Source of the DNA: a virus
Virus record (IMG/VR): IMGVR_UViG_3300017421_000001
Coordinates: 1 to 48,003 of that record
DNA length: 48,003 nt
Reading direction: 5' to 3' (one strand)
The notes below the pieces were generated by a model. It searched no databases. It was given only the letters and a program-made list of their open reading frames with translations, and was not told the DNA's origin. Shown one piece after another: positions 1-45,378 of this stretch (within the stretch, counting starts at the first letter, position 1; every line of letters begins with the position of its first letter). The translations under genes and the position numbers were made by a program.

Positions 1-112
1 GGCATCACTTATCACGAACGAAAGAAGGCAGCGTAACATGGCAGGCAGCGTCAACAAGGTCATCATCGTCGGCAATCTCGGCGCCGACCCGGAGGTCAAG
101 TCGTTCCAGAAC
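1..112. repeat. Terminal overlap copy A (identical to 47892..48003)
   Basis: Exact 112-nt identity read directly. It spans the end of the 224-aa gene and the first 75 nt of ssb. Confidence 0.95.
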
Positions 113-3389: not shown

Positions 3390-3562
3390 ACGCGCCGCAC
3401 CCCATATCCACCTTCGGCACCCGTTGCCGCCAGTCTGTTGCAAACACGCCTGAGCCGCCGGCTGTCGAGCCCACCTTCACCTTAGACCGCCACATCGCGC
3501 GCGCACGTCGAGAGATGGGCGCTGATCGGTGGGCACAACTCAATTCGGAGTGGGAACTGTGA
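3386..3562 (+). CDS. Hypothetical 58-aa protein
   Basis: ATG 3386 forms an ATGA overlap with the methyltransferase stop. The ORF track lists a longer 3338 start. Confidence 0.4.
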   Translation: MNAPHPISTFGTRCRQSVANTPEPPAVEPTFTLDRHIARARREMGADRWAQLNSEWEL

Positions 3563-5909: not shown

Positions 5910-6197
5910 ATGACGGCGCAGGCGCTTGCCTCCAAGTTCCGCCGTGCCCTCCGCAACGAGACCGGCGCAACATTTACCCTTGAGCAGATGCGCGAGCTGT
6001 CCTCGTATGGCGTGCTGCCAATGATCCTTCAAAAGGAAGCCGAAGAACTGTGTCCCGACGTACAGATGAATTCAGGGTCGGAGACTACTGGCTCACCAAG
6101 CGGCGAGATGGCAAATCACCGGATATCTGGCAGATCGCCCACTACTCGGACAAGTCGCGGTCCGTTGTCTATCGCAGCACTAAGTGCAGGACTGTAG
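5910..6197 (+). CDS. Hypothetical ORF overlapping the integrase start (possible directionality or regulatory factor)
   Basis: Strong AAGGAG (5896..5901) lies 8 nt before ATG 5910. The last 148 nt overlap int out of frame and translate poorly. Confidence 0.3.
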   Translation: MTAQALASKFRRALRNETGATFTLEQMRELSSYGVLPMILQKEAEELCPDVQMNSGSETTGSPSGEMANHRISGRSPTTRTSRGPLSIAALSAGL

Positions 6198-7276: not shown

Positions 7277-7302
7277 GGTAACAGCGCGTTTCAGGACGTA
7301 TC

Positions 7303-7343
7303 GGGCGGTTAGCTCAGTTGGTAGAGCATCTCGTTTACACCGA
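7303..7343 (+). other. attP core candidate: 5' 41 nt of tRNA-Val(UAC), not an intact tRNA
   Basis: GGGCGGT-TA-GCTC-AGTTGGTA-GAGC-A-TCTCG-TTTACAC-CGA gives the acceptor 5' arm, D-arm, anticodon stem 5' arm and loop (anticodon TAC at 7336..7338). Homology ends inside the 3' anticodon stem. No T-arm. Confidence 0.65.
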
Positions 7344-7403
7344 TAAAACGTAGCTGAAACGCGCACTTCTCTGTCCACGGACAGAAGAACGGAGCGTGAT
7401 TCA

Positions 7404-7712
7404 ATGGCGAACATCGAAGCATCTGCGGACCATTCGCGGACCACGCCCAAGGTCGGCATTGTTGAGCGGCTTAGAGAGCCGGCAGTCGAAGGCGTGCCGC
7501 TGCCGCTTTGCCATCTTTTGGACGACGCGGCTGACTGTATCGAAGCCCTTATTCGTCGCGTTGGCGAGCGCCTTGCCATGCGCTGCAGGATGCCGGGTGA
7601 CGACAACCAGCTTTTAGCATCCGAACTGGAGTGCATGCTGGCGGAAATGAAGTGCATCTCCGATGCCACCCCCACCCGCCTGAACGCGGAGGGCGCAGAT
7701 CGTGGCCGGTGA
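7404..7712 (+). CDS. Hypothetical 102-aa protein
   Basis: First ORF downstream of attP. No motif recognised. Confidence 0.5.
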   Translation: MANIEASADHSRTTPKVGIVERLREPAVEGVPLPLCHLLDDAADCIEALIRRVGERLAMRCRMPGDDNQLLASELECMLAEMKCISDATPTRLNAEGADRGR

Positions 7713-8067
7713 GGTGTTCCGTTGGATCGGCATCGTTACGATCGGGGCGATCCTGACCGGCGCGCTCATGTACGCCTCGCTCTGGCTATACGCGAACCTG
7801 ATCTACCAGCGGTTCGGTGCCATTCTGTTTCGCAAAAGCGAACGTCGGCTGTCCCTCGCATCTTGGCATGCGACCAAGCTGATGCGGAAGGGCGAGCAGA
7901 GCGACGACGATTGGCCGGCTGACGACTTCCCGATCAATGAACGGCCCTTCTACCTCTCATACCAGATCGGCCAGCGCCGCTTTTTCATGATGCTTGGCTG
8001 GCTTGGGCCGCATCGTTCCGCGCCGATCAAAGGGCGCCATCCGTTTGTCGATAGGAAGCTCCCATGA
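7702..8067 (+). CDS. Hypothetical membrane-anchored protein
   Basis: N-terminal hydrophobic helix WIGIVTIGAILTGALMYASLWLY. GTG start overlaps the upstream gene. Confidence 0.5.
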   Translation: MAGEVFRWIGIVTIGAILTGALMYASLWLYANLIYQRFGAILFRKSERRLSLASWHATKLMRKGEQSDDDWPADDFPINERPFYLSYQIGQRRFFMMLGWLGPHRSAPIKGRHPFVDRKLP

Positions 8068-8630
8068 CCACCCCAAAGACATCCCCGGTAGCTGAGAGCG
8101 TGGTGGAGAAGGTGGCGGCTATCATACGCGACCACAACCCGAAACCTTGCGGCGTAGAGTGGCCTCGTAACGCAGCTGTTGCGATCCTCGCGGCCATGCC
8201 CTGCCCCATAGAGGACGATACCCCCACCGATGAGCTAGAGCGAGGCAAAGACGAATTGCGCCGCTTGATGGAGAGTATTTGGCGCGCCGAGTACCGAAAG
8301 GATGCGCCCAACTGGAAACCTCTCGAAGATCTGCCTGGGATGATTTCACAGATCGACAACATGTATGCCGGTGTTCGCCAGCAGCGGGATCAGGCGCGAT
8401 GGGACTTGCACAACCCGCCGGCAGCCACAGCAGGCCTCGTGGGGGAGTTGGTCGAGGCGTTGCGTAAGCTTGAGCAGGCTAACGACGATCTATGCGCTAC
8501 AAGGTCACAGGTGACCTACAATAGCATGATCCATCACGACAAAGCGCACGATCATCTCCTGGCGCTGGACGAAGCTCGCTGCAACGCCCGCACCGCCCTC
8601 TCCAAAGCCAAGGATCTCCCTCATGGTTGA
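8064..8630 (+). CDS. Hypothetical 188-aa protein
   Basis: ATGA-type overlap with the upstream gene. No motif recognised. Confidence 0.55.
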   Translation: MTTPKTSPVAESVVEKVAAIIRDHNPKPCGVEWPRNAAVAILAAMPCPIEDDTPTDELERGKDELRRLMESIWRAEYRKDAPNWKPLEDLPGMISQIDNMYAGVRQQRDQARWDLHNPPAATAGLVGELVEALRKLEQANDDLCATRSQVTYNSMIHHDKAHDHLLALDEARCNARTALSKAKDLPHG

Positions 8631-8862: not shown

Positions 8863-9080
8863 GCAACATGCGACGCATCGCCTACGCCGCGTTCTCATCA
8901 GCTGAAGCCCTGAGATTGGCTGCGCAGATCCAGCAGGGGCCTGCGCCTACCTTCCATCATCCATGCGGACGTAGGTCTGTGATCGTCGGCAAGTGGGGCC
9001 ATCAGCTCGCGCACCCCAGCGACTGCCCTGACTGTGCCGCAGTCGCCAAGCCCTTGCAGAACAATACCGGAACAAGCTAA
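8859..9080 (+). CDS. Hypothetical 73-aa protein
   Basis: Overlaps the upstream stop. Co-directional. Confidence 0.45.
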   Translation: MSNMRRIAYAAFSSAEALRLAAQIQQGPAPTFHHPCGRRSVIVGKWGHQLAHPSDCPDCAAVAKPLQNNTGTS

Positions 9081-9089
9081 TCCCCATGA

Positions 9090-9350
9090 ATGTCCCGCAA
9101 CCGAGTCGACGAAGGGGCAGTCACCCGAGCCCTCAGCGTGCTAACCGAGGCGCGTGATGCCGACGAACCGATGCAGACCAAAGGCGTTGCCCTCGCTCTC
9201 TATGTGCTTCGTGGACATTGCCCCGATGATTGGCTGCGGTACTTCTGGGATGCTGCCGGTACAGACCATGACATCGGTAGAGCGCAGAGCATGCACGCGG
9301 CTTACAATGGGGTGGAGTTGCGGGTGAAAGGGAAGGATAAGAGGCCATGA
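9090..9350 (+). CDS. Hypothetical 86-aa protein
   Basis: Co-directional ORF. No motif recognised. Confidence 0.5.
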   Translation: MSRNRVDEGAVTRALSVLTEARDADEPMQTKGVALALYVLRGHCPDDWLRYFWDAAGTDHDIGRAQSMHAAYNGVELRVKGKDKRP

Positions 9351-9466
9351 CGTGGGAAATTGCTTTCACCATAGCCTGCCCCCTGCTGACAATGTGGGGA
9401 TGGTACTGGGGCCGCAAGTATGAGCGAAAGCTTGCGGGTGAGGCAAGGACGATTAGGGATAAGTGA
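9347..9466 (+). CDS. 39-aa hydrophobic micro-protein (below the ORF-track cutoff)
   Basis: ATGA overlap at 9347..9350. Sequence MTWEIAFTIACPLLTMWGWYWGRKYERKLAGEARTIRDK. Confidence 0.4.
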   Translation: MTWEIAFTIACPLLTMWGWYWGRKYERKLAGEARTIRDK

Positions 9467-9672
9467 TGGCACACGATCACGCAGTAGGCGCCATCAAAAA
9501 AGTCGTTCTATACGACAGCGGGCTAGGTGGCCGGTATCGCATTCGGTTCAATTGCGGATGCTTTGGAGCCTGGACGCTTGAAGGCAAAAGCTTGACCGGC
9601 GGTGACGATATGGTCGATTTTGATACTGAAGTGCTTGCCGCCAAGCTCGTAGAGGGTGAACTTACGCCATGA
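9466..9672 (+). CDS. Hypothetical 68-aa protein
   Basis: ATG 9466 overlaps the TGA of the micro-ORF (the track uses GTG 9463). Confidence 0.5.
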   Translation: MAHDHAVGAIKKVVLYDSGLGGRYRIRFNCGCFGAWTLEGKSLTGGDDMVDFDTEVLAAKLVEGELTP

Positions 9673-9920
9673 CCGACACACCCCTACACCGCGCCGCCCG
9701 AGCCCTCATGAAATCGCAGAGCGGTGTCGATGACTTCGATGCGCTTGATGACGAGATGCAGCAGGGCTTGCTGGATGATGTGCGGGCAGTGCTGGAGTTA
9801 GGTTTTAGGGCTGGCTATCAGGCGGCGGTGGATGAAAAGGTGCAGCATGGATATGATGCCTCGCGCCATTTGCCTTTCGAAGATCTAGCTTGGAACAGCT
9901 ATCTAAATTTATCCAAGTGA
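9669..9920 (+). CDS. Hypothetical 83-aa acidic protein
   Basis: ATGA overlap with the upstream gene. Last clear gene of the plus-strand block. Confidence 0.55.
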   Translation: MTDTPLHRAARALMKSQSGVDDFDALDDEMQQGLLDDVRAVLELGFRAGYQAAVDEKVQHGYDASRHLPFEDLAWNSYLNLSK

Positions 9921-12300: not shown

Positions 12301-15300
12301 TCACCGGTTCAAACGGCGGATTGCGCTCAGGCGGAAGTAGACCGTCGCGGATGTCGGGACCGCGTTTGCCACCACCGCTCGCACGCGCATCTGCAGGTTT
12401 GCTGGCTCGCCAGTCAGCGTCACGGGCAAAGTCCGAAGGACGCCCGAGTAGCTGTCAGGGCCGAGCTGGTATCCGGCCGTAGCAGCAGCAATGTCGGATG
12501 CGCCGTCAAAGATGTTCGGACCTACGATCATCATGTCGAAAGAACGAATCCCGGAAGGTGTCTCCACCATCACTTCCAGGGTGGCATCGATCACGTCACC
12601 AGCTTGGAACTGGCTTTTGTAGAGGTCGATGTTCACCGTCCAGCGATGAAAGACCGGAGATGCGTCTGAACCGCTCGGAGTACCAGACAGCACAGCTTTC
12701 TGCCATTTGCGGCCGACCGCATCGGTATAGATGCTGTTGGCTGCGGCAGCGGACCCGCCGGCCGAGTTGGTGTAGGAAAAGTTGTCTACTACGGTGCCTA
12801 ATCCCGCCATCAGGGCATTCGGTAGCAGGTTGCCGTTTCGGGCAATCATCTGCACGCCGTCGCGCGGAACAACCTCCCGAGCGCGCGGCAGGAACATCGC
12901 CAACGCGGCGCGGACTGCACGACCTTGAACGAAGGTCCCCCGCACCGTCATATGGATGCCATCGACGGTGGCCCAGGACGCTGCAATGGTCGGGTCTGTG
13001 CTGTCCGCCAGCGCGTTCCAGGTGTCAGCCACAGCCACGCCGCCAAACGGGTTATGCATGGCGTTGATGCCGTCGCGCACTGCAACATGCTCGGTCTTCA
13101 ACGCGCCGCTTAGATCGGTTCGCGGCGTTTCGTTGGAGATGACGACCCGGATGCCCGCCGTCTTGAGCATGTTGATCATGGCGGTCAGATTGGCGAGCGA
13201 GTCGGCAGAGGTGTATTTCACGCCCGTCGCGGGGTTAGTGGCATTGCGATCGTTGGTGCTCGCGAGCAGGCAGCACACCTCGACGCTCGCCGCCTTCATT
13301 GCCGCGATGTCGGCAGGAAGAACCGCAAGCAGTTCGTCCGTTCGCCAACCGGAGCGACCGAAATTCAGCGCTGGCGTGGTGTCAAAGTTCTGCCGCGAAA
13401 GCATCCGCAGCCAATGCACATAGGAACGGTTCGACAGGTACTTGAGGCCTGAGCCGATTTGGCCCTGGATAGTCCTGCTATCGCCTTCAAACGCCACCAC
13501 TGGGCCACGTAGCTGATCCTCAATAGCTAGCGTTCGCGCGCTGTTGACCGCGAGCGCCAAGTCAGCCTGGAGGAAGCGCAGGAAACCGAGAGATGATCCT
13601 TTGAAGATGATCGGCGCGGCCAGAACCCCGGAGAACAGATCACTTGCCGCAGCTTGGGTTCGCAGCATGAAGCCATTGATCGAACCGGACGATACAGTGT
13701 CGGCAATATCGGCAGCACTCAGAGTTCGCTGCACGTAATAGCAGGCCCAACCATTACCCACTTCGACCGAGGTGGTCATCGGGATGTTGGCCCTGTTCAC
13801 ACCCATGTTAAAGCCAAACTGTGCGTATTTCGTCGGGTCCACCAGCGGGTCTACCGTGAGGGCACGGGTGAAGATGGCCAGCGTCACGACATCGCCTTGT
13901 GCAAACCCGCTGTCGCTCAAATCAATAGGCGTGAAATACGGAGACACGATCTCAACGCGCTGTTGCTTCGCTGGATCCTGTAGCTCAAATTGGTAGCCGA
14001 ATAGGCCGGGGATCGGGAATAGTTGGTTGTCGAGGTTGACAACCGAACCTGCCTGCACGGCGCCGGTGCCACTCGATGCAGCGATGGCCCAGTTCGATGC
14101 AAGCTTTACATCGGTAGCCGGCATCAACTGAGGTGAAGGAGCGTCCGACAGCATACGCGCGACGAGAGAACCCGTTGCCAATTTTCTTAACCCGACTTCG
14201 TATCCGTACCCCACGCCGGTGGTGACCGGCTCGGATGTCGACGCAACAGGCTCCTCCGGGTAGATCGCGGGCTGCGTCCGCTTGCCCATTAGCGTGAACA
14301 GTGTGGAGGACGTGATCACAGGCGGGCGCTTGCGCTGCTGACGCCAGAGCAGCCAAAAGGCCTTCTCCAGCCCCTCACCCTTGGCGTTGTAGTGCACGTC
14401 GTTGGAGGTGGTGGTCTCCATGACCGAGCGGGGATTGATCCCGGCATCGTAGTCGGTCTGGTCGTTGCTCGAACCATCGCGGCCGAACCAGCGCACGTAG
14501 TCCGAATTGTTGTACTTCTGCCCGCCTACCGTGACGATCGCGTACCGATCGCCGAACAGCTGGTAGAACTGGCCATCCGTGTAGCCGTTCGCCTGCGTGC
14601 CGTTGAGGTAGCGCAGCGCGGTGTAGAACGGCGTGCCGGTGGTCCAGTTGTTCTGCGGGCTGAGGCCAAGGACCGTGATGGGCTGGCCGACCGTCTCAGC
14701 CGCGATGAGTTGCAGGTCCTCCAGTACGCGCGGGTTGATGTCGTTCGGGAACACCGGATTGCCAGGACCGGCAAAGGCGTAGTTCTGGCTGAGACGCGCC
14801 GTGACCTCATGTGTCTTCAGGCGCGCGAGGTTGTCCGGCACGAACGGCGACTGCGGATCGATCGGCGTGGCGCCCAAGCCATCATCCGCCGTGAACTTGT
14901 AGGACGGCGTTCCACCGTTGGGCACCGACATGAGGCCATGCCGCCCGCCCCAGGTGCCAGCCTCCGAGCAGTGCGTCGAGATCGTGTCGCCTGCAAACGT
15001 GCTCAGGAAGCCATGAGCCGCGAACAGGTCGAACGACGCGGGGTTGTCCCCCACCGCCGAAGCAGAAGGCGCAACACCGTTGATTGACGTGACAGCCACG
15101 CTTGTGCCGCTTGCCGGGATCGTATTGCCGGCTGCAGTGCAGAGCAGCTTGCGTACGCCCAGGCGATAGACCTGCTTGGCGCCGCTGCTGTACTTGGCGA
15201 CCACCACGGCGTCGCGGCCCAGGTCGGCAGCGGCGCTTGCAGCCCAGGTGTTGTCGAGCATGCTGTCGCCAGTGAACAGCAGCGGACGCAATGCGTCGTA

Positions 15301-15999
15301 GTCGAACGCCTGCGTGTCAATTGCGCGGATGCCGCCCCCAATCGGCAGGGTGAAGTTGCCCCACGACAGCGTGAAACCGTCCGCCTCACCGTCCCACTCA
15401 AGCATGGCACGCAGAGGCGAAGTGGTGGACAGCGCTATGGCACGAAAGCCGTAGATGCGAGGTTGGTATAGCTCACCGATGTTGGCGAGAGCGGTGGGCA
15501 TCTGCTCCACGTTCGCAGCAGGCAAAGTGCCTTGGAACGGAATGATGTCAAGCTGCTGCCGCTCCCGCTCGGTCCATAAAAAGCACCACTGTGCTTGTGC
15601 GAGGAACCCGCCCTCGCGGGTGGGCCCGTCACGATCACCCGCAAGCCGCCACTCATATTCGCGCCATTCTTGGAATAGCCCGCTTGCGTCTTGCGTGACC
15701 TTGAACGTCAGGCCGCGCTTGCGTTGGTCGAGCGGGATGGCGTCACGATCAGCAATGCTGCCGGAGCGCGCTATTCCAGGAAGAGAACCGTTGAAGGTCG
15801 CAGCGGCAGCATTCGTCTGATCGATAGCTTGCTGGATTAGAGCCAAAGCTTCGGTCGGATCGCCTTGCTCTGCGACGACGGCCGCAACAAGCACATTGAG
15901 CTCAGAGAACGCCGCAAGCACGCCCTCACGCGAAGGCTGCTTCGTAAGCGAAGGCGGATTGCCGAAAAGTGCATCCCGAAGGGTGTCTATTGCGCTCAC
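12301..15999 (-). CDS. Large tail fibre / host-recognition protein with SGNH(GDSL)-hydrolase domain(s)
   Basis: 1232 aa, GTG start. VVAFEGDSRT...STNDRN...VDGIHMT form an SGNH block I/III/V pattern. A second GDS motif, LLFTGDSMLDN, lies N-terminally. Follows the J-like gene. Confidence 0.75.
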   Translation of the reverse strand: MSAIDTLRDALFGNPPSLTKQPSREGVLAAFSELNVLVAAVVAEQGDPTEALALIQQAIDQTNAAAATFNGSLPGIARSGSIADRDAIPLDQRKRGLTFKVTQDASGLFQEWREYEWRLAGDRDGPTREGGFLAQAQWCFLWTERERQQLDIIPFQGTLPAANVEQMPTALANIGELYQPRIYGFRAIALSTTSPLRAMLEWDGEADGFTLSWGNFTLPIGGGIRAIDTQAFDYDALRPLLFTGDSMLDNTWAASAAADLGRDAVVVAKYSSGAKQVYRLGVRKLLCTAAGNTIPASGTSVAVTSINGVAPSASAVGDNPASFDLFAAHGFLSTFAGDTISTHCSEAGTWGGRHGLMSVPNGGTPSYKFTADDGLGATPIDPQSPFVPDNLARLKTHEVTARLSQNYAFAGPGNPVFPNDINPRVLEDLQLIAAETVGQPITVLGLSPQNNWTTGTPFYTALRYLNGTQANGYTDGQFYQLFGDRYAIVTVGGQKYNNSDYVRWFGRDGSSNDQTDYDAGINPRSVMETTTSNDVHYNAKGEGLEKAFWLLWRQQRKRPPVITSSTLFTLMGKRTQPAIYPEEPVASTSEPVTTGVGYGYEVGLRKLATGSLVARMLSDAPSPQLMPATDVKLASNWAIAASSGTGAVQAGSVVNLDNQLFPIPGLFGYQFELQDPAKQQRVEIVSPYFTPIDLSDSGFAQGDVVTLAIFTRALTVDPLVDPTKYAQFGFNMGVNRANIPMTTSVEVGNGWACYYVQRTLSAADIADTVSSGSINGFMLRTQAAASDLFSGVLAAPIIFKGSSLGFLRFLQADLALAVNSARTLAIEDQLRGPVVAFEGDSRTIQGQIGSGLKYLSNRSYVHWLRMLSRQNFDTTPALNFGRSGWRTDELLAVLPADIAAMKAASVEVCCLLASTNDRNATNPATGVKYTSADSLANLTAMINMLKTAGIRVVISNETPRTDLSGALKTEHVAVRDGINAMHNPFGGVAVADTWNALADSTDPTIAASWATVDGIHMTVRGTFVQGRAVRAALAMFLPRAREVVPRDGVQMIARNGNLLPNALMAGLGTVVDNFSYTNSAGGSAAAANSIYTDAVGRKWQKAVLSGTPSGSDASPVFHRWTVNIDLYKSQFQAGDVIDATLEVMVETPSGIRSFDMMIVGPNIFDGASDIAAATAGYQLGPDSYSGVLRTLPVTLTGEPANLQMRVRAVVANAVPTSATVYFRLSAIRRLNR

Positions 16000-16233: not shown

Positions 16234-18396
16234 TCACGTTACGGTGCCGCTCACTGGGCCGGTCGGTGCTGCTTCTAGATCGGCCCCGTCTGTCGCCACC
16301 ACCCAATAATACCACGTTCCCGCCGCGACCGTATCTTCGACTGACTGCACTTGGCCGACGCCTCCACCAAAGCTGTCTACGACCTTGGTTGCCGAGCCGA
16401 AGTCTGAACTCGAATTACGCCAGACGTCGGACGAGAAGAACCGCAGATCATTGGGGTTCTTCCATGTGACGGTTGCCTGTCCGGTGCCGCCTTCGATTGT
16501 CAGGTTCGTGGCAGGTGGTAGCACAGCCGTTGTCGATTGAACTGCGTACTCGAACGCCGGCCCGCGTCCTGCAGTGGTGACGTAACGATATCGGACGGTG
16601 TAGTCCTGCCCTTCCAGCAGAAGCCCGCTGGTAGCGGTAGTCTGGTTGATCGACATGGGCATCCAGGGATCGGACTCATCGCCCGTGATATCCGCCGTCA
16701 GGATGTACTCGGCGGTGTAGGTCGCATCGTCCCGGGCCAGCGCCGGGAAGTCTATGCGGATCGCGCCGTCTGACAGGTAGACGTTCTCACCCGTGATAGC
16801 TGGATAGGCCGCTGTTGTGGTTGATCCATCCACCACCGGCTTAGGCTGCTCCTCCCCGGCAAGCAGCGTCCATCGGCTAGAGCTGATCGGCACCGCGCCA
16901 AACCCCGTGAAGATGCCTGCGCCATCAAGCTCAACCGGCGTGGCGATCTCATAATCACCGGCAAAGGTGTTGTCGTAGTTCATGGTGATTATGCGCTCAT
17001 GCCGCGCCTGCAGGCCGCGCAAGTTCACGGTCGGGCCGATCTTATGCCGAGGCTGAGAGCGCATGCCGATGCCCTTGGCGAGGCGCATGGCCTGGTTGTG
17101 GTTCTGGCAGGCCTGAATCTCGACCGTGAGGAACTTGGGCGTGGTCAGCGGATCATAATACAGCGGATTGATCCAAGCGGCCGAGGGCTGCACCGTGTAG
17201 TTCGCATCGGGCTCGGTATATTTGACGATGACACCCTGCGTCTCACTCTCGCCGTCTTGAGCCTCTACGCTCGACATGGCCATGATGTCGCGGTTGCGAG
17301 AAAAGGAGAGGGTGGGCGTGTACCAATAGCCTACGCGCACCCACGACTTTCCATCCTCGTCGAACACGATCTGGCCGTCGCAGGCCAGCAGGATTTCCTT
17401 CTCGGCGTCGACCCGGCGCTTGCTGTCAACGATCGAGACGCCAGCCTCGTACCGCTTCTGCGTACCCTCGATCCCTTCCACGTCCTGGTCGCAGATAGTG
17501 GCCTGCTCGCCTATGCGCTGCCAGTTGATGGAGCTTTCCGGCTTGCCTCGCCCGAATGGGTGGGTGCGAAACCATGCCCAGATCAAGGCTGCATTGCGGC
17601 TTGGCTTGTAGGTGGAGCGATTGCCGAGAACCTGGCTAGGATCGCGCGGATCGTAGACGTTCGCCCAGTCGCCCAGAACGCTGATCGCCGGCTCACCAAG
17701 GCCGAATGGCCCGCGCCAGCGATAGATCTTATAGCGATGCTCAATCTTGAGCGCGTCCATGCAGACGACGGTATAGGTGGTGCCGGCAAGTAGATGCTCG
17801 GTGGCTGTCCACTGGGGGAGAGCGGCGGTCAGCTCGGCTATGCCGGGAGGGACAGGGTTGGCCTCGCTGTAGGTTGTGGTCCAAAGGCGAACATAGCCCT
17901 TACCTTGGCCGTCAGCGTCGGCAGGGTCCTTGTCCTTGTTCTCCTTGAGGCGGAACTCTTTCTGCTGAACGTAACGATCTGCTCCGACTGTGACCGGCTC
18001 GTCGTCTAGGAAATAGCCGTACGAGGGTTGCAGGATCTCATCGCTGTTGGCGACAATGTACCAGAAGCGGCCTTGGGCATCGAATTCACCAAACATGGCG
18101 CCGCCACCGGACCTAGCGCGACCGGCGTGCAGCCAGCGGGGTGGGTCCGATATCTTAACGTTTGTTTTGCCGGCTTCCATGGAAGGTGAGCGGACACCTC
18201 CCATCAAAACGGATTGAATAATGTATGTACCAGCGGCGACAATTACGGTCCCGATTACGGACGCAACAAATGCGCTGGATGATCCAATAGCCGCTGCGAG
18301 ATTGGCGGCAAACAGGCTCGTCGGCCCCGCAAAGTAGATCAGCGCGGCTACCGCCACCAGCGCGACGATCTTCTTAAGAAATCCCACGCCAAACAC
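16234..18396 (-). CDS. Host-specificity / tip-attachment (gpJ-like) tail protein
   Basis: About 720 aa, placed after the NlpC/P60-like gene. Hydrophobic N-terminus. Start uncertain: GTG 18396 or 18387 (track: 18465). Confidence 0.65.
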   Translation of the reverse strand: MFGVGFLKKIVALVAVAALIYFAGPTSLFAANLAAAIGSSSAFVASVIGTVIVAAGTYIIQSVLMGGVRSPSMEAGKTNVKISDPPRWLHAGRARSGGGAMFGEFDAQGRFWYIVANSDEILQPSYGYFLDDEPVTVGADRYVQQKEFRLKENKDKDPADADGQGKGYVRLWTTTYSEANPVPPGIAELTAALPQWTATEHLLAGTTYTVVCMDALKIEHRYKIYRWRGPFGLGEPAISVLGDWANVYDPRDPSQVLGNRSTYKPSRNAALIWAWFRTHPFGRGKPESSINWQRIGEQATICDQDVEGIEGTQKRYEAGVSIVDSKRRVDAEKEILLACDGQIVFDEDGKSWVRVGYWYTPTLSFSRNRDIMAMSSVEAQDGESETQGVIVKYTEPDANYTVQPSAAWINPLYYDPLTTPKFLTVEIQACQNHNQAMRLAKGIGMRSQPRHKIGPTVNLRGLQARHERIITMNYDNTFAGDYEIATPVELDGAGIFTGFGAVPISSSRWTLLAGEEQPKPVVDGSTTTAAYPAITGENVYLSDGAIRIDFPALARDDATYTAEYILTADITGDESDPWMPMSINQTTATSGLLLEGQDYTVRYRYVTTAGRGPAFEYAVQSTTAVLPPATNLTIEGGTGQATVTWKNPNDLRFFSSDVWRNSSSDFGSATKVVDSFGGGVGQVQSVEDTVAAGTWYYWVVATDGADLEAAPTGPVSGTVT

Positions 18397-18769
18397 CCCG
18401 CCATTTGACAAGCTTGAGCGGCACTTCAATCGTGCCGCGTTCAAGACGCACAACGACCCGATCACCCGTGCAAAGAGCCGGGATCACGTAATCTGCGTCT
18501 GCAAGTAAGCCGACAACGTCGCCTCGCCGTGGATCGTCATCGACAGGCGTGCCTCCTACGATTTCCATAGTCGCTTCCATGCCGCCCAGCTCGGCAAGCA
18601 AGACCATGGCCTCGTCATTATCGCAGTAAGTGCCCGCGAAATCGGGCATGGCCGGTGCAGCGCCCAAGCTGACAAAGTACGCTGCCGCCGACAGAACGCA
18701 GTCATTCACGCCGTATTGATGAGGATGCCGCCGCCACTCTTGCAGCGTTTGATCGACGATATCCATCAA
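18374..18769 (-). CDS. Tail-associated NlpC/P60-like cell-wall peptidase
   Basis: 131 aa. YGVNDCVLSAAAY carries a candidate catalytic Cys, plus GDVV. Position is equivalent to the GTA/lambda gpK-type peptidase. Confidence 0.55.
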   Translation of the reverse strand: MMDIVDQTLQEWRRHPHQYGVNDCVLSAAAYFVSLGAAPAMPDFAGTYCDNDEAMVLLAELGGMEATMEIVGGTPVDDDPRRGDVVGLLADADYVIPALCTGDRVVVRLERGTIEVPLKLVKWRGVWRGIS

Positions 18770-19431
18770 GGCACCTGGTAAGTCCGGTTGGCCAGCAAGG
18801 CTAAGAATTCAGCGCCACGATCAATCGGCACACCTAGCTGAGCGGCGCGACGTTTCTGCATTGTGTCAGCATAAGTGCGATCCGGCGTTTCGCTCCGGCC
18901 ATGGTTGTTGTCTTTGGCAGTGATTGAAACAGTGTAGGTTTTTACAACCGCGCCTGATGCAATACGAGCGATTGTCTCAGAGAACTTAGGAGAGAACATT
19001 GTCATCTCCTTATAGAAAGAGAGCGGGGTATTCGGACGCAGGCCCTCGCCCTCTATAAACAGTGCAAGGTAACAGGTGAGTGATCGGCCAAATACCTGTG
19101 CCTGTTCAGACTTCAGCCCTTCGTATAGGGCAAGTATCTCATCTTCTTGTCCCGGCATTGTTGGGATATTGAACGAGAACGCGTACGAGGCTGAAGTGCC
19201 GTCGCGACCATCCTGCAGCGAGGGGGTCTTGTGCAAGTTAGTACCGTTTGCGTCGAGCGTCCCCAGCCACTCGTTCCCAGCACTGTCCGTAAAAGAGCCT
19301 TGCCCATCCCAGAGCCGCACTGGCTCGCTCTTGAAATCATAGAGCCAGCATTTGCGCACAGTGGCGATGATATCGGTGACGTCACCCGACGAGCCGAGTA
19401 TTTCATCAAGCTGGGAATAAAACTCGCTCAC
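18766..19431 (-). CDS. Minor tail / hub-like protein
   Basis: GTG start. VRLWDGQGSFTDSAGNEWLGT...DGTSASYAFSF resembles siphovirus tail-hub proteins. About 38-45% GC in sampled lines. Confidence 0.5.
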   Translation of the reverse strand: MSEFYSQLDEILGSSGDVTDIIATVRKCWLYDFKSEPVRLWDGQGSFTDSAGNEWLGTLDANGTNLHKTPSLQDGRDGTSASYAFSFNIPTMPGQEDEILALYEGLKSEQAQVFGRSLTCYLALFIEGEGLRPNTPLSFYKEMTMFSPKFSETIARIASGAVVKTYTVSITAKDNNHGRSETPDRTYADTMQKRRAAQLGVPIDRGAEFLALLANRTYQVP

Positions 19432-19487
19432 GCACGATTGTTACGCCTGTAAGCAACTTTCTGCAACTATGAACAGGCTAGAAGGGT

Positions 19488-19868
19488 CTAGCCACGATCA
19501 ACATGCGACACACGAAGGCATTGCGAGCGCAATTTTGCCACCTCTTTGTCAATCGCCTTTGACTTGACGGGATGGCGATAGAAGCTGCGAAGAAGAGTGG
19601 CGCCGCCAACTGACCGGACTTTGTAGCTCTGCCAAGGCCCAGATTTTGGCCAAGTATGCGGCGCGACATCGATATCGTTGCCGCTATCAACTGGGATAAC
19701 TATTGCATCTGCGCGCCGGCCAAGCTCCCGCGCTATGCATGCTGTCGCATCGGCCACGGTCATATCCAGTGTCATCACCTGCCCCCAGTCGCGGTGTGGG
19801 TAGTCAGTGTCCGACCGTGCTGACGCGGTGGTGGCGACTACGGCGAGGATGAGGGCTGGCCATTTCAT
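19488..19868 (-). CDS. Secreted/periplasmic 126-aa protein of unknown function
   Basis: Sec-type signal peptide MKWPALILAVVATTASA. ATGA overlap with the upstream 299-aa gene. Low GC. Confidence 0.6.
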   Translation of the reverse strand: MKWPALILAVVATTASARSDTDYPHRDWGQVMTLDMTVADATACIARELGRRADAIVIPVDSGNDIDVAPHTWPKSGPWQSYKVRSVGGATLLRSFYRHPVKSKAIDKEVAKLRSQCLRVSHVDRG

Positions 19869-20764
19869 AACACTTGCCCATCATCGTTGAGTAGGTTCAG
19901 TTGGCGGGGCGCGGCGACGTGCCGCTTGACCTTAGTGACTACGTTTTCCGTGACCAGCCCTTTAGGCGTTTGCTTTTGAGTAAACTCAACCTCGCAAATG
20001 AGTACATCGCCCTTTGCGAACCGGATCTGATTGCGGTCCACACGTGCAAGAAACTCTTCATCTCTGATGACTGCGCTCACTGCGCTAGAACCGTCATGCA
20101 GCCGCCACTTGTTATCTTCTTTGAAAGCAAGTGACAAAATAGAAAAGGCGGCTTCTCGCGTGTCTTTGACTAACACCCGCTCTGGTATTTCCGGCGCACG
20201 AAAGGACTCAGCCTCTTCTTTTGTTACACGCTGATCAGGTAGAGCGCGATCTCCAAACTCGACTAACTGGATGCCCGGCGCTTGCAGCGGCTTGTGAACC
20301 ACGCGTTCAAGGGCCGAACGAACGGCCAAATCTTGATAGAGCCTTAATAGTTCAGTCGGGACGTCAAAGCTCTCGTCGCCGTACGTGACACGCAACATGT
20401 TGCCGGCAAGTCGCTCGACTCGATCAGGCGCTCTGCCGCGATGCCTGCGAAGCCACCATACCAACCCCGTGGCGCCAATCAGCAGCTCTTTCAGGTTTAT
20501 GGCGGCTGTGACCATATCGCCGGAGAGGAGCGATATGGCACCATCTTTCCAGCCCTGAACAATGTCGAAGATTACGCTGAAGCATCCAGGTTCATGCGCT
20601 CGAACATTGACCTTCACCTCTGCCGACTCACCATTCAGCAGCAGGTTCATGGCGTCGAACAACTCGCCAACGCCAAGCATGGCGGGTGCTAAGTCGCGAA
20701 CGTCCATCTCGTGGTTCTTGAGCGCAGGACCGTCGTAGGTCAGGGTGAAGTCAGCGCGGCTCAT
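19865..20764 (-). CDS. Orphan 299-aa soluble protein of unknown function
   Basis: ATG 20764 (track: TTG 20773). Begins MSRADFTLTYDGPALKNHEMDVRDLAP. No motif recognised. About 47-55% GC against about 63% in neighbours. Confidence 0.65.
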   Translation of the reverse strand: MSRADFTLTYDGPALKNHEMDVRDLAPAMLGVGELFDAMNLLLNGESAEVKVNVRAHEPGCFSVIFDIVQGWKDGAISLLSGDMVTAAINLKELLIGATGLVWWLRRHRGRAPDRVERLAGNMLRVTYGDESFDVPTELLRLYQDLAVRSALERVVHKPLQAPGIQLVEFGDRALPDQRVTKEEAESFRAPEIPERVLVKDTREAAFSILSLAFKEDNKWRLHDGSSAVSAVIRDEEFLARVDRNQIRFAKGDVLICEVEFTQKQTPKGLVTENVVTKVKRHVAAPRQLNLLNDDGQVL

Positions 20765-20830
20765 AGCTCTCAATATGCTGGGGGCACTGCGATCGTAAAG
20801 CGGAGATGTGTGGCCTAGGGCTGGCCAGGA

Positions 20831-21490
20831 TCAGACCACAGCTTCCTGCAACACAATGTTCCCCGGTTTGACGTGTCCTAAATTGTTGTAGGCGGCGCGG
20901 ATATCGGCGCCATTGCTGATCCGCCCGGTGAACCAAGGCCGTAGGTAGCAATTGTCACCAGCCACGATATTCCGGCGCAGGGGCGGTGTCACGATCGCGG
21001 TAGCGACGTCGCCATCATAGGTCACGTCATCGATCAGATATGTGTCGAAGTCATGGCCTACGACATGACCCGGCGTTACGACCGGCCCTACGCCAGTCAG
21101 ATCGAACTTCATCACCACCGAGCCCTTCAGCGCGTCAGCGGCGTACCGGCCTGTGAAGTCGCCGTCCCAGTTCTCTTGGTTGGACCAAGCCTGCTGGTTG
21201 CTCCACGGCACGGCCACTTTGCCACGCTTGCGGCTGTAGGCAATCTGGGGCGTCGGCGCGAGACGTACCCGGAACACCTGCCCGCTGATCTTGGACATGA
21301 TCCACGACGCTAGCGGGAAGTCCCACTCGGTATCGATGATGGCCGGAGCGATCTCAAGCACGCCGAAGCCGCCCGGTTCGGGCGTGATGAACTGCGCGCC
21401 GCCTGACGTCAGCCCGCCATCGTAGCCAGCGCCAGGCGAATGGAAGAGCTGCGTCTCAATGCGAAAGGTGGGGAACTGGTAGACCTTCAT
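20831..21490 (-). CDS. Tail protein following the tape measure (distal-tail-like)
   Basis: ATGA overlap with the tape-measure stop. The call rests on position. Confidence 0.5.
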   Translation of the reverse strand: MKVYQFPTFRIETQLFHSPGAGYDGGLTSGGAQFITPEPGGFGVLEIAPAIIDTEWDFPLASWIMSKISGQVFRVRLAPTPQIAYSRKRGKVAVPWSNQQAWSNQENWDGDFTGRYAADALKGSVVMKFDLTGVGPVVTPGHVVGHDFDTYLIDDVTYDGDVATAIVTPPLRRNIVAGDNCYLRPWFTGRISNGADIRAAYNNLGHVKPGNIVLQEAVV

Positions 21491-24099
21491 GACGCGAACG
21501 ACCCATCCGTGTCGAGCTGCTGAAGCAGCGTCTGCAGATCCCGTTTCACCTGATTGTATGTCGCCTCGCCGCCCTGGCGCACCATCGAGGCGATGCCATC
21601 GAGGCCTACCGCCCCTGCGAAGCTGAAGGAGTTGTGCACGTCACCCATGCGGATAGCGGGCTTGCCGCCGCCGCCATGCGACTGCACCCCCAGCTTACCG
21701 TTCGGGCCGCGCGTGAGAGGCATGATCGCCTCAGGGCCAGCTTCCCCCATCTCGCCAAGCTGGGCACCCTTGGCAAAGCGGAACAAGGTGGGCTGGCTTA
21801 CCACTGTGTTGGTGAACGCTCCGCCCTTGGCGAAGCGCTCGGCGGTTCCATAGGCACCCCCCAACGCGTTGAGCGTGACGTTACCGGCGCTCCACCCGGA
21901 TGTGTCGACGGCCTTGAGCCCCCCGCCGCCGCCTGCGAAGATGCTGTCGAGGAACCCGTTGAGCGTCTTGTCCAGCAGCTTATCGATGATCCGGTTGAGG
22001 CTATTGATCGCGCTATCGGCAAAAGCTTTAGAGGCATTGCCGCCCTCGCGCACGCCGTTGATCCAGTCAGAGAAGAAACTCTTCGTCACCTCGCGGGCGT
22101 CCGCGATGGCCTTTGCCTGCTGGTCTATCGCATACTTGGCCTCGGCATACGCATCGGCTTGGCGGTTGATCCTGGTGAAGTTGATGTCTTCTTCCGCAAC
22201 CCCGGCGGTGCGCTGTCGGTTGATCTCCTGTTGAGCATACGCGTAAGCGATAGCGGCCTTCTCACCCAGCCCAAGCGCTCCACGCTCGGCATCAAGCTGA
22301 CGCATGGCGACGTTGTGCGAGTAGTCCCGATCGGCATCCGCTTGCTTGAGCAGGTTCTGGTATTCCTTGTCTGCCAAGGCGTTGGCGGCGCTGCTGATCA
22401 CCTGCCGATCGTTGTCAGTGAGGGGCAGGGCGTTCTTGCCACGAGCTGCCTTCAACATCTCTTGTTCGTGACGCAGCGCGGATAGATCGCGATTATAGAT
22501 GCCGATCTGTGCCGATGCGTCTTGCAGCGCCGCGAATTCCTCAATGGCAGCCTGCTTCGTGTCTTCGCGGAAGGTGGCGAGCCGGTTTGCCTCCGATAGT
22601 TTGGCAAGATCGGCGGCGATGCCCGAGATAGAGGCGCGCTGGGCGGGAGACAACTTGAGGCCATGCTCGGACGCTTTGTTGAGCAGATCCTGCTCGTAGG
22701 TGACCCGGGCCAGCGCTTCGCCATAGAGGCCGATTTGCATGCGCGCCTTGTTCAGGTCGTTCTCGGTCTTGGCGGCGTCCTTCAGAAGGTCGTCGAAGCC
22801 GTAGGTGTCCTTTGCCTTCTTTTCGCGGGGCTTGTCGTACATGGCCTTCGCCATTTTGTCCTGCCGATCGCGTGCATTCTTCTGCGACTGGCCGACGACA
22901 TCATCCATGAATTTCTGCGCTTCTCGGTACTGGTCCTTGAAGCTCCCGCCGACAATCTCCAGCAGGCTTTCCTTCTTGCCCGTTTTGATGTTGTCGAGGA
23001 TGCGTGGGATGACGTTCTGCAAGCCAGTGAACGCGGCATAGACGCCAGCGAGCGAGAACCGCACGGCAGTCACCAGCCAATCGGTGAAGCTGCTCCACTT
23101 CTTGCTCAGGTCATCTGTCGTGATCCCGAACGCGTTGGCGATGCGCTCCCAGCCTACTTGGAACACAGCCTTTGCTGTATCCCCCCAAGTGACCGTAACG
23201 GCATTTAGCTTGGCCACCTCCGCCTTGGTGTAACCCATGGCCGTGGTGTACTTCTTCAAGCCGCTGTCATCGTTGGCCTGAGCGGCCAGTGCAGCGATGC
23301 CAGCAGCGGCAAGCGCTAGTACCGCGATCAGGGGGGCAAGCGGCGCCAGCATGGCCAGAATTGACGCAGCTGCCGCTCGGAACACCGCGCTCACACTGGT
23401 GCCAGTAGCGACGGCCTTCTCTTGCAAAATATCAAAGAGCTGAGGGCCCTGCTGCACGGCTATCAGGAAGGGGGACATCCCCGACGCTGCGGTCACACCA
23501 ATGTCGGCAAGCTGCCGTGATGCGTTGAGGCCCTCGCGAGCGGTGAACCTGATGGCAGTGGTGGCACTGTTCGCCCCCTCAGCCACCTTACCCAGGCTCT
23601 CACGGTATGCGACGATGTGAGCGTTGCTCTCTGTCTGGCTGCTAGCCTGACCTTGGAGGCTCTGCCTATACGCAAGCACATGGGCGTTCGCGTCACGCTG
23701 CGCCGAGGCCATTGCCGCTAGATGCTGCGTGTAGGCGACCACATGAGCGTCTGAGGCCACCAAGGCGGTTGATGCCGCCTTTTGAGAGATCACCATCGTT
23801 TCGAGGTGCTGCCGATAGGTGGTCACATGAGCATCGGCGTTACCGAACGAGCGTGCCGTATTATCATTCGCTGCTGACAGCGCCTTTTCAGACGCTGTCG
23901 CTTTGTCCAAACTGCCGATGATCGCATTTAGCTTAGCGTCCATTGACTGAACGCTGGCCACCAGCTTGGCGATCGACCCTGATGTAGGGCTCGCTGCAGC
24001 GCCAGCACGCTTGGCCGAGTCTGCAAAGCGATCAAGGTCATTGGCAGCGGTTACGACCGTGCTGCTGTCGATCGACAAAGAGAGGGCGGCAACGTCCAT
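21487..24099 (-). CDS. Tail tape measure protein
   Basis: 870 aa, Ala/Gln-rich and helical with a central hydrophobic stretch. Follows the G/T chaperone pair. Confidence 0.9.
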   Translation of the reverse strand: MDVAALSLSIDSSTVVTAANDLDRFADSAKRAGAAASPTSGSIAKLVASVQSMDAKLNAIIGSLDKATASEKALSAANDNTARSFGNADAHVTTYRQHLETMVISQKAASTALVASDAHVVAYTQHLAAMASAQRDANAHVLAYRQSLQGQASSQTESNAHIVAYRESLGKVAEGANSATTAIRFTAREGLNASRQLADIGVTAASGMSPFLIAVQQGPQLFDILQEKAVATGTSVSAVFRAAAASILAMLAPLAPLIAVLALAAAGIAALAAQANDDSGLKKYTTAMGYTKAEVAKLNAVTVTWGDTAKAVFQVGWERIANAFGITTDDLSKKWSSFTDWLVTAVRFSLAGVYAAFTGLQNVIPRILDNIKTGKKESLLEIVGGSFKDQYREAQKFMDDVVGQSQKNARDRQDKMAKAMYDKPREKKAKDTYGFDDLLKDAAKTENDLNKARMQIGLYGEALARVTYEQDLLNKASEHGLKLSPAQRASISGIAADLAKLSEANRLATFREDTKQAAIEEFAALQDASAQIGIYNRDLSALRHEQEMLKAARGKNALPLTDNDRQVISSAANALADKEYQNLLKQADADRDYSHNVAMRQLDAERGALGLGEKAAIAYAYAQQEINRQRTAGVAEEDINFTRINRQADAYAEAKYAIDQQAKAIADAREVTKSFFSDWINGVREGGNASKAFADSAINSLNRIIDKLLDKTLNGFLDSIFAGGGGGLKAVDTSGWSAGNVTLNALGGAYGTAERFAKGGAFTNTVVSQPTLFRFAKGAQLGEMGEAGPEAIMPLTRGPNGKLGVQSHGGGGKPAIRMGDVHNSFSFAGAVGLDGIASMVRQGGEATYNQVKRDLQTLLQQLDTDGSFAS

Positions 24100-24966: not shown

Positions 24967-25695
24967 TCAGATTTCGACGATGTTGGAGTCGACCGCGATC
25001 GACCAGGACCGGAGCAGGGGGGTGTTGGCTGCGCCGCCGCTCTTCGAACCGGGCATGGCAAGGCCGTAGAACAGGTCGGTTTGACCTGCTGGCTGCGCGG
25101 TAGCTGTGATGGAGGTCGCAGTCCCAGCGGCAGTGGTGGCGACGGCCGAGCCGCCAGGCGTTGCCGATACGTTGAACGTTGTGGGGGTGAGCCCCGCCGA
25201 CAGGACGTAGTAGACCGTACCAGCGACCAGCCCAGTCGGCAGCGTGCCCCCGGTCGGCGTGAAGATTACGGGGGAGCCAGCGTCCAAGCCATGGCCATTC
25301 TGCCAAGTGACAACCGCAGGCGCTCCGACGCTGACGGTCACGATATCGTCGGCAGCGCACCCGGCACCCCACTCGACCTTGAAGGCGTAGGGCGAGCAGC
25401 TTTCGATTGCTTGCTTGAACTTGATCTGGCCGGGATCATTCTGGCGCGGCGCGAACGTGTTTTCCATTGAGGCGCCAACAAGGGTGCCCTTGATCTGGCG
25501 AGTACGATTGCTGTCGATGAAGTCTTGGCTGATCATCTGTTGAGTGTCGCCAAGCGAGCCGCTTTGCGTCCACCCGCTGATCTCGGTCCACTGGTTTTCC
25601 TGCCCTACGAAGTCAGCAAGCGCGACCTCATCTTTGGGAGCGACCCGAGTTCCGATATAGATCTTTGATCCTGCGACAGCTTGCAGTGATGCCAT
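24967..25695 (-). CDS. Major tail protein
   Basis: 242 aa, immediately upstream of the G/T chaperones. Thr/Gly/Ala-rich C-terminal extension. Confidence 0.75.
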   Translation of the reverse strand: MASLQAVAGSKIYIGTRVAPKDEVALADFVGQENQWTEISGWTQSGSLGDTQQMISQDFIDSNRTRQIKGTLVGASMENTFAPRQNDPGQIKFKQAIESCSPYAFKVEWGAGCAADDIVTVSVGAPAVVTWQNGHGLDAGSPVIFTPTGGTLPTGLVAGTVYYVLSAGLTPTTFNVSATPGGSAVATTAAGTATSITATAQPAGQTDLFYGLAMPGSKSGGAANTPLLRSWSIAVDSNIVEI

Positions 25696-25814: not shown

Positions 25815-26090
25815 CTAGTCAAAGATGGAGTGTGACACCTCTTTTTCGCTGATGTTGAAGCGCTTGCTTATGAAGTCGATGACTTGCTTACCCGCAAGAG
25901 TGGGCGCCATCTTATGGCCCTTGCAGGTTAGGCAATGGATGCTCGGGGCGAGCTCATAGGTGTTGGTCTTGCGATACTTGCCGGTGCCGCCACAATCGGT
26001 GCAGGGCTCCTCCAGTGGCGGCAGTCCTGAGTTATGACCTTCTATCATTCTGCGTCCGTTCTGTTGCTGACGATCATAGATTGAAGGCAT
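25815..26090 (-). CDS. Small DnaJ-type zinc-finger protein (moron candidate)
   Basis: 91 aa. Motifs CTDCGGTG and CLTCKGHK. About 50% GC. Non-coding DNA on both sides. Confidence 0.6.
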   Translation of the reverse strand: MPSIYDRQQQNGRRMIEGHNSGLPPLEEPCTDCGGTGKYRKTNTYELAPSIHCLTCKGHKMAPTLAGKQVIDFISKRFNISEKEVSHSIFD

Positions 26091-26117: not shown

Positions 26118-26591
26118 TCACATGGATGACCAGAGCACTCGAACGGGCAACACGCGGTAGGCCCCGTCCACATAGGCAGACATGGCCGCCGCATCTTGCG
26201 TCACTCGCAGCCGCGACGGCCCAAAACTCATGCAGGTGTCTGCCGGAAAGTGCGCGGCGATCTGCCCCCCAATCTCCTTGAGCTGAACGTGAGATACCGG
26301 CCTGGTGATCGGCCACTGCACCGTGATCATCAGCGTGCCGCTCCGCACATGATCAACCCCCGAGATGCCCATACGCTGCGGTTCATTAGTCACATCGCTT
26401 AACAGCAGGAACGGCATGGGTAGGCCGTGGTTATCCTGGCCCTCCTCATTGGGCGAAGGCCCTTCGCCTTCGGTATGCACTGGAGGGGTGATGACCTCGC
26501 CAGGATCAAAGCGCAGCATCGCGGGGCTAGTCACCAAAGTGTCGACACGAGCCTTGAGGGCAAGCCAGTCAGTCGTTTCGAGCGAGGGCAT
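26118..26591 (-). CDS. Tail terminator / tail completion protein (gpU/DUF4128-like)
   Basis: 157 aa, between the gp10-like gene and the major tail protein. Call rests mainly on position. Confidence 0.5.
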   Translation of the reverse strand: MPSLETTDWLALKARVDTLVTSPAMLRFDPGEVITPPVHTEGEGPSPNEEGQDNHGLPMPFLLLSDVTNEPQRMGISGVDHVRSGTLMITVQWPITRPVSHVQLKEIGGQIAAHFPADTCMSFGPSRLRVTQDAAAMSAYVDGAYRVLPVRVLWSSM

Positions 26592-45368: not shown

Positions 45369-45378
45369 TCCCGCCTTC

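Follow-up and report, generated by a model that had tools for sequence, protein, structure and literature searches.

What are two adjacent genes, one for a 299-aa protein and one for an exported protein of 126 aa (sp126), doing inside the tail-tip module of a phage genome, and do they belong to that module? The question arises at positions 19432..20830 of the IMG/VR virus record IMGVR_UViG_3300017421_000001, which was analysed over 48,003 nt (the window in what follows). The original prediction, drawn from the bare sequence, put forward as a reasonable hypothesis that the pair was acquired accessory cargo in the tail-tip module, possibly devoted to defence or exclusion, and this core idea is upheld by the variation of the locus among related phages and by the homology of the 299-aa family to gp29 of phage MichelleMyBell (MMB). 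We favour, with moderate confidence, the explanation that the locus is an occupied moron slot, in which a prophage-expressed, gp29-like gene of abortive-infection type stands beside an independent, envelope-acting sp126, the two not forming one system.

Both genes lie on the minus strand. The 299-aa gene (19865..20764) encodes 299 aa if read from an ATG and 302 aa if read from the TTG that lies upstream of it at 20773; the ATG is favoured because the consensus of its homologues begins MSxAxFT. The sp126 gene (19488..19868) follows it so closely that its ATG overlaps the TGA of the 299-aa gene within ATGA (19865..19868). Two non-coding minus-strand gaps frame the pair, a 66-nt spacer (20765..20830) 5' of the 299-aa gene and a 56-nt leader (19432..19487) that separates sp126 from the 221-aa gene; the reading frames, their overlap and both gaps are as originally described. 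Since the 299-aa family comprises 4434 clusters and the 126-aa family 113 members, both open reading frames (ORFs) are real genes, and ORFs of 55-88 aa on the plus strand of the interval were taken as shadows of the conserved minus-strand genes. Scans of both gaps for terminators and for Rfam families found nothing. The slot occupied by the pair is bounded upstream by the 219-aa gene (20831..21490, minus strand), the first tail-tip gene after the tape measure, and downstream by the 221-aa gene (18766..19431, minus strand), the second tail-tip gene, in hub position. Neither flank is cargo.

The tail proteins of the window were mapped onto 11 related tail modules (loci are designated here by L-numbers). 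The 219-aa gene directly follows the tape-measure gene in every one of them, its product showing 77-98% identity in ten loci and 58% in L020, while the 221-aa protein shows 67-84% identity across all. Pfam and PHROG searches of the 219-aa protein gave no match; the 221-aa protein gave a weak one to phrog_2048 (tail). In five of the 11 modules (L005, L015, L017, L019 and L020), the slot is empty: the 219-aa and 221-aa genes abut or overlap, 0-3 bp apart, with the stop of the former and the start of the latter sharing GTGA or ATGA. The flanks of the pair are thus adjacent in relatives, the arrangement by which a moron is recognized. Elsewhere the slot is filled differently. L006-8 carry a reverse-strand 156-aa gene together with an sp126 homologue (39% identity), L016 a reverse-strand lipoprotein with a signal sequence ending in LAGC, and L018 a DUF3800 protein (7731..8564; PF12686, E 2e-10) with three small secreted or unclassified proteins, a set that is further accessory or defence-type cargo. 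Genes for an Arc-type repressor and for a Bro-N protein fill the slot in the closest relative, L014, whose tape measure and 219-aa gene are 94% and 98% identical to those of the window. On L182, another contig of that sample, an AntA antirepressor precedes an sp126 homologue (76% identity), which in turn lies directly upstream of the 221-aa gene.

The synteny survey that the original prediction had proposed therefore returned a slot that is empty in five relatives and differently filled in the others, and it is on this ground that the 299-aa gene and sp126 are cargo. In three lineages, the slot has sp126 as its resident gene on the hub side, and the part on the 219-aa side is exchanged; the 299-aa gene is a recent arrival. 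One element of the earlier description has to be abandoned, namely that the pair travels as a single two-gene cassette: because the 299-aa gene and sp126 each occur without the other elsewhere, the interval is not one cassette but two independent morons placed side by side.

Comparative synteny, not base composition, is the real proof of cargo status. The interval does have a lower GC content, 0.556, than the whole window, 0.604 (4th percentile among windows of equal size; about 2.2 standard deviations, sd), but the dip is shallower than the 47-55% against 63% first estimated by hand, the tape-measure gene itself standing at 0.606. At third codon positions (GC3), the 299-aa and 126-aa genes have values of 0.600 and 0.606 against a gene median of 0.685 (sd 0.075), the 10th and 13th lowest of 59 genes. 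The GC and codon-usage check thus finds a compositional difference of the pair from its neighbours that is present but modest, about 1-2 sd, and cargo in other occupied slots likewise lies at 0.54-0.57. The low GC was also said to continue through 18766..19431, and that stretch is indeed the lowest here (0.535); it is, however, the conserved 221-aa gene, which runs 2-5 GC points below the mean of its locus in seven of eight relatives, including four of the five with an empty slot (3 points below in L005), so this low GC is not a continuation of foreign DNA. As the deviation is modest and nearly all relatives show an equal shift towards AT in a core hub gene, GC and GC3 are weak evidence of foreign origin, and we rejected them as proof of it. 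Elsewhere in the window, a 195-aa plus-strand ORF (3529..4116) has the lowest GC (0.498) and GC3 (0.485) of the genome, deviating more than the pair does; it gives a weak match to the HNH_3 endonuclease family (E 5.7e-5) and is probably a homing-type HNH insertion.

The 299-aa protein, described at the outset as an orphan with no recognizable motif, proved to belong to catalogued families. It matches the PADLOC model PDC-S42 (PDLC05015) almost end to end (E 2.4e-113; residues 1-291 of 299 against profile positions 1-298 of 302), the NCBIfam family NF053583 ('LAPAL motif-containing putative phage structural protein') with 262.8 bits against a cut-off of 60, and phrog_3243 (E 5e-60). The Pfam family DUF7946 (PF25678) reaches 22.3 bits over residues 6-69 only, below its gathering threshold of 27 (E 1.5e-4), and a precomputed DUF7946 match exists for the homologue P0105. 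At E<=1e-3, the family comprises the 4434 clusters (at 50% identity) mentioned above, nearly all of about 300 aa and of a single architecture, from Alpha- and Gammaproteobacteria, Dehalococcoidia, cyanobacteria and others. Its hallmark is the N-terminal motif YDG.A....M.VR.LAPA (20681..20737, minus strand; codons 10-28), 89-99% conserved over 110 non-redundant members, which in the window is YDGPALKNHEMDVRDLAPA with a following M in place of the consensus L (D24-L-A-P-A-M29, that is, LAPAM instead of LAPAL). Judged by these profile matches, the 299-aa protein is a plain, single-gene member of a catalogued family of defence candidates. A profile built from the family alignment found no PDB sequence at E<=10, and we found no relevant literature on PDC-S42, DUF7946 or LAPAL.

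The lead to MMB came from a depositor's note, 'MMB_gp29_gp30__gp29', on a homologue in a Vibrio Vinavirales prophage. MMB gp29 (KF986246, 310 aa) aligns with the 299-aa protein by BLASTP at E 6e-8 over 268 residues with 23% identity, matches the same PADLOC model (PDLC05015, E 1.6e-16) and aligns with the family profile over 258 columns (hhalign probability 96.4%, E 1.2e-9). By these alignments, the two proteins are homologous, which ties the proteobacterial phage copy of a large family to its sole experimentally validated relative. The MMB system consists of a toxic gp29 and of gp30, putatively a protein of the membrane (PMC11856565, citing Dedrick 2017), and its defence resembles abortive infection in that adsorption and injection proceed (PMC6426606). 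What Georjon 2023 and other papers call 'gp29-gp30' is the (p)ppGpp system of Phrann rather than that of MMB and was set aside.

The contexts in which family members occur point in the same direction. In six cultured temperate viruses, the homologue lies inside or beside the lysogeny and integration region and not among the structural genes: between endolysin and int in Lactobacillus phage A2, between a superinfection-immunity gene and int in Listeria phage vB_LmoS_188, 0.1-1.5 kb from int in Bifidobacterium phages Bbif-1 and PMBT6, about 0.8 kb from int, two small ORFs intervening, in the tail-less Vibrio Vinavirales element PE001, and, for gp29 itself, between the lysis cassette and the integrase of MMB. 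At 87-90% identity, the closest relatives of the 299-aa protein are each encoded by a solo gene that sits at a prophage edge and converges with the gene of a 417-aa integrase (L009/L021, L184, L010/L101). Among the nearest neighbours of 72 bacterial loci, a Pfam census counted six IS1595 transposases, three integrases and three S24 repressors, besides HTH proteins and housekeeping genes, and no virion families. The family is thus shown to be a mobile single gene, its position within a tail module being the unusual feature of the window, and the integrase and lysogeny contexts, the housekeeping and IS1595 neighbours and the empty slot in relatives contradict the NCBIfam name, so that the 'structural protein' label carried by the NCBI annotation pipeline is probably wrong. 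A stricter formulation, that the gene always sits at a prophage edge, was rejected: an integrase, sought with our own iterated hidden Markov model (HMM), lies within 6 kb at just six of the 80 genome loci and at 19 of the 80 viral ones. A survey of 155 loci revealed no conserved partner gene downstream.

Two side observations concern subsets of the family. A copy 75% identical to the 299-aa protein (L013) lies between two IS1595-family transposase genes (DDE_Tnp_IS1595; 6508..7428 and 8999..9889), which hints that this gp29-like gene moved as a composite transposon. In six or seven loci (L013, at 8902..9069, L022, L023, L056, L039 and L049), the gp29-like gene is overlapped or abutted at its 3' end by a small, acidic reading frame of about 55 aa (MTNLREALEQNKLKKFVAE...SSxDDCDD); its carriers are sphingomonad copies 75-77% identical to the 299-aa protein and, among very distant hosts, a cyanobacterium and a Marinamargulisbacterium. 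This ORF, absent from the window and from most members examined, might serve some members as partner or antitoxin.

Sequence upstream of the 299-aa gene appears to travel with it. In an alignment of the window sequence with three copies whose contexts are unrelated (L184, L009 and L010), CTTTACG and GCATATTG were invariant and the 16-17 nt between them varied. DNA homology with the integrase-adjacent copies extends from about 45-50 nt 5' of the ATG to the last few codons, so that the segment from about 20807 to 20765 moves along with the gene. Within this conserved block, on the minus strand, lie a -35-like TTTACG (20799..20794) and, past a variable stretch of 16 nt, a -10-like CATATT (20777..20772), the latter 7 nt from the ATG. 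Across 114 non-redundant upstream regions of the family (L021-L180), TANNNT hexamers occur 6-7 nt 5' of the start codon in 23, against about two per position elsewhere, and the genes that have them almost never have a Shine-Dalgarno-like 4-mer. This suggests that many gp29-like family members are leaderless, self-promoted units. By the same token, the 66-nt spacer would supply the 299-aa gene with a promoter of its own, so placed that the mRNA has little or no leader, and transcription in the lysogen could then proceed without the late operon.

The AlphaFold model of the 299-aa protein (pLDDT 84.3) has an N-terminal alpha/beta region that carries the YDG/LAPA motif, a middle alpha/beta region and a C-terminal domain. 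This last domain (19916..20179, minus strand; codons 196-283) is arranged as beta1-beta2-beta3-helix-beta4-beta5, an OB-like topology in the model, and contains a near-invariant cluster (F214, K219, W220, R221, D224, G225, D235, F238, K251, D253 and H282) of which MMB gp29 keeps most. Its top Foldseek matches in the PDB are all OB-fold nucleic-acid binders: the single-stranded DNA-binding proteins (SSBs) Rim1 and M. tuberculosis SSB, the anticodon-binding domain of lysyl-tRNA synthetase, ExoVII and CST. The modelled fold suggests that the domain may bind a nucleic acid or act catalytically on one. Over their full length, the models of the 299-aa protein and sp126 have no significant Foldseek match in the PDB, and structural matches in BFVD were confined to uncharacterised phage proteins, one of them from the Cluster N phage Pipsqueaks. 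Neither protein shows similarity to Dit, Tal, hub or baseplate proteins in Pfam, PHROG, PDB sequence or Foldseek searches; confident homology of this kind is what the original prediction had named as evidence against cargo. Two features offer handles on the family, the polar cluster on the OB-like domain and the portable promoter, whose position appears to suit leaderless translation.

The second gene belongs to a narrower world. The 113 members of the sp126 family are 120-150 aa long, and all named members and long contigs are from Sphingomonadales; Pfam, PADLOC, PHROG and NCBIfam gave no match. The signal peptide originally proposed (residues 1-17; 19818..19868, minus strand; N-terminus MKWPALILAVVATTASA) is borne out by 30 aligned homologues, in which the N-terminal shape is conserved, the signal-peptide pattern closes with AxA and an invariant DTDYPHRDWG opens the mature domain. 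Two cysteines, C44 and C117, are also invariant. There is no lipobox, the cleavage region ASA|RSDTDY containing no Cys and C44 being the first. In the model, a globular alpha/beta mature domain has pLDDT >90 and residues 1-25 are <50, and Foldseek gave weak matches to the Francisella lipoprotein Flpp3 and to KA1 domains. From these features, sp126 is most likely an exported, disulfide-bonded periplasmic protein. It is found without a gp29-like gene in L005, L006-8, L016, L019 and L181-3, in two different tail-module slots, and in the window it is followed by the 56-nt leader, about 45 nt of which, 5' of the hub start (TTGCAnAAAGTTGC...GTAAnAAT...GTGCGTGAGCG), align with L006, whose slot also holds an sp126 homologue. 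By analogy, and with low confidence, sp126 can be regarded as an envelope-acting factor of lysogenic conversion or exclusion. Many sp126-bearing contigs are 45-51 kb long, consistent with a single phage group.

The second of the two slots lies between the genes for the tail terminator (26118..26591, PF13554) and the tube-like protein (24967..25695). Its occupant in the window, at a local GC of about 0.54-0.55, is a 91-aa Anti-TRAP-like / DnaJ-type CxxC zinc-ribbon gene (25815..26090, minus strand; PF15777, E 1e-15, 57.9 bits against a cut-off of 32), and in L005, L016 and L019, an sp126 homologue takes the place of the zinc-ribbon gene.

The window has an exact 112-bp terminal direct repeat (1..112 and 47892..48003), which indicates a circularly assembled, complete phage genome of about 47.9 kb. 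It encodes an integrase (6050..7276, plus strand; phrog_1, E 2.4e-18; E 1.5e-8 with the integrase HMM built in this analysis) and a CI-like repressor (45322..46032, plus strand; phrog_4 transcriptional repressor, E 3.8e-19; phrog_6201 CI-like repressor), and the phage is therefore temperate. A DNA methyltransferase, a terminase and a tail chaperone are also encoded, besides the tail terminator and tube-like protein, and the closest protein relatives are from Sphingomonas, Novosphingobium, Sphingopyxis and Erythrobacter, making this a temperate Sphingomonadales siphophage. Read along the minus strand, the tail module runs from the tape measure (21487..24099; 870 aa, PF06791) through the 219-aa gene, the 299-aa gene, sp126 and the 221-aa gene to a DUF6950 gene (18374..18769; 131 aa), a 743-aa fibre/J-like gene (16234..18465; phrog_5616) and, 3' of it, a 1232-aa protein gene (12301..15999) with a C-terminal lipase-like domain; this order agrees with the placement first given, after the post-tape-measure gene and before the hub-like and J-like genes. 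The C-terminal 400 residues of the 1232-aa protein match the PHROG 'lipase' family phrog_6102 (E 4e-34), and in the relative L013, Lipase_GDSL_2 is found in a protein adjoining a large tail-module gene. In all probability, the 1232-aa protein is a fibre or spike of the tail that carries an esterase domain.

How might such cargo work? The 299-aa gene probably arrived as a unit of about 950 bp with its own promoter-like block, from which the prophage most likely expresses it constitutively, possibly as a leaderless mRNA. Its product would then most likely work in the cytoplasm as an abortive-infection-type defence against other phages: the C-terminal OB-like domain may bind nucleic acid or another infection cue, and the active protein would harm its own cell, as the toxicity reported for MMB gp29 would lead one to expect. 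For its part, sp126 would act at the envelope, by superinfection exclusion or by interference with the receptor or with entry. Several observations pull the other way. The only experimental datum for the family is the defence by the MMB prophage, none coming from proteobacterial members, and PDC-S42 has the status of a defence candidate only. MMB gp29 does not have the YDG/LAPA motif, the most conserved part of the family, so the function of the 299-aa protein may differ, and MMB is a two-gene system for whose gp30, a protein of 67 aa with two hydrophobic segments, the window has no counterpart. The OB-fold matches are weak (best E 0.017, TM-score on the target 0.61), a sigma-70 consensus scan of the gaps called no promoter and no terminator was found, and no exclusion protein is homologous to sp126 or matches its fold with confidence. 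Only two of 144 nearest neighbours of family members match PADLOC models. Because the immediate neighbours are so rarely known defence genes, the defence assignment rests on the MMB experiment, the candidate status in PADLOC and the lysogeny-associated context.

These points bear on the competing explanations to different degrees. The 299-aa protein might serve the prophage in some other way, by stabilising the element in the manner of an addiction module or toxin, by regulating induction or by adding to host fitness, a role that we consider unlikely. The toxicity of gp29 (PMC11856565) would fit an addiction module, for which the small acidic ORF at the 3' end in the subset could supply an antitoxin-like partner; known defence genes are rarely adjacent, and many copies stand isolated among housekeeping genes or beside IS1595. 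Most members, including the window copy, nevertheless lack that acidic ORF, and both the one experimental datum and the PADLOC listing speak for defence. That one or both proteins are virion or tail-assembly components is very improbable. Their same-strand position inside the late tail operon and the 'putative phage structural protein' of the NF053583 name would favour it, but five relatives with 67-84%-identical tail genes have nothing in the slot, family members are found beside integrases, among housekeeping genes and in a Vinavirales prophage that has no tail, and the similarity to Dit, hub or baseplate proteins that such a role would lead one to expect was found in neither fold nor sequence. 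As for sp126, it is not a part of the virion, since it is Sec-exported while virions assemble in the cytoplasm.

The coupling of the two genes invites a different objection to treating them as independent, namely that they form one two-component system analogous to gp29/gp30, in which a cytoplasmic toxic or sensor protein is checked or triggered by a co-translated periplasmic partner in the place of gp30. The ATGA overlap in the window is matched by the small envelope-targeted gp30 of MMB, which likewise overlaps the 3' end of gp29, and lipoprotein, secreted or transmembrane genes follow a few family members (L044, L135, L164, L167 and L169). This is doubtful, however, given that sp126 recurs without any gp29-like gene at the loci listed above, that the closest gp29-like copies are solo genes, that the 155 loci revealed no conserved partner and that the 299-aa/sp126 junction is on no other contig in the databases; sp126 and MMB gp30, moreover, do not align and share no similarity. 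A broader proposal, that the pair is an architectural variant of the gp29/gp30 defence with sp126 in the place of the two-transmembrane gp30, or else that the whole family is a self-promoted abortive-infection module with an OB-fold active site, we regard as similarly improbable. If the former were true, an envelope-level signal, phage entry, would be coupled to a cytoplasmic OB-domain effector; if the latter, a family of 4434 clusters, often leaderless and acting as a single protein, would carry in its K-W-R/D/D/H cluster a new nucleic-acid-targeting active site. An occupied moron slot with a gp29-like gene of abortive-infection type and an independent sp126 remains the explanation that we prefer.

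Taken in this sense, the locus is an ordinary but well-resolved example of prophage cargo and changes no paradigm. Through it, the space between the first and second tail-tip genes emerges as a hotspot for cargo in a group of temperate Sphingomonadales phages of about 48 kb, and this hotspot and the second one, between tail terminator and tube gene, are natural places for mining defence and exclusion genes in Sphingomonadales.

Among known systems, the nearest is MMB gp29-gp30 (DefenseFinder 'MMB_gp29_gp30'). Both gp29 and the 299-aa protein are about 300 aa long, temperate-phage-encoded and, as far as the alignments allow, homologous nearly end to end, and in both cases a small ORF directed to the envelope overlaps the 3' end of the gp29-type gene. 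They differ in their low identity and in the motif that gp29 does not share, in the downstream gene, which in the window is an unrelated 126-aa secreted protein that also occurs alone, and in location, gp29 lying between lysis and integrase and the 299-aa gene in the tail-tip module. With PDC-S42, NF053583 and PHROG 3243, the likeness is closer: the match is full-length and the architecture is that of a single gene, as in most members, and in sequence terms, LAPAM in place of LAPAL is the sole difference.

The concept of the moron comes from HK97 and HK022, with superinfection exclusion by HK97 gp15 and the lom gene of lambda as examples. The 299-aa gene and sp126 resemble morons in lying between genes that are adjacent in relatives, in their lower GC, in the portable promoter-like block and in products that would be aimed at the host or its envelope; they depart from them in that no terminator was detected and in being fused by the ATGA overlap, and neither protein is related in sequence to gp15 or Lom. 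Superinfection-exclusion proteins encoded next to receptor-binding genes, such as Llp of T5, Cor of T1 and phi80 and Sp of T4, provide the last comparison. Lacking homology to these proteins and a lipobox, sp126 is nonetheless, like them, small, predicted to be exported and encoded in the tail and adsorption module, and the setting is similar too, as the other cargo found in its slot includes a lipoprotein (L016) and secreted proteins (L018).

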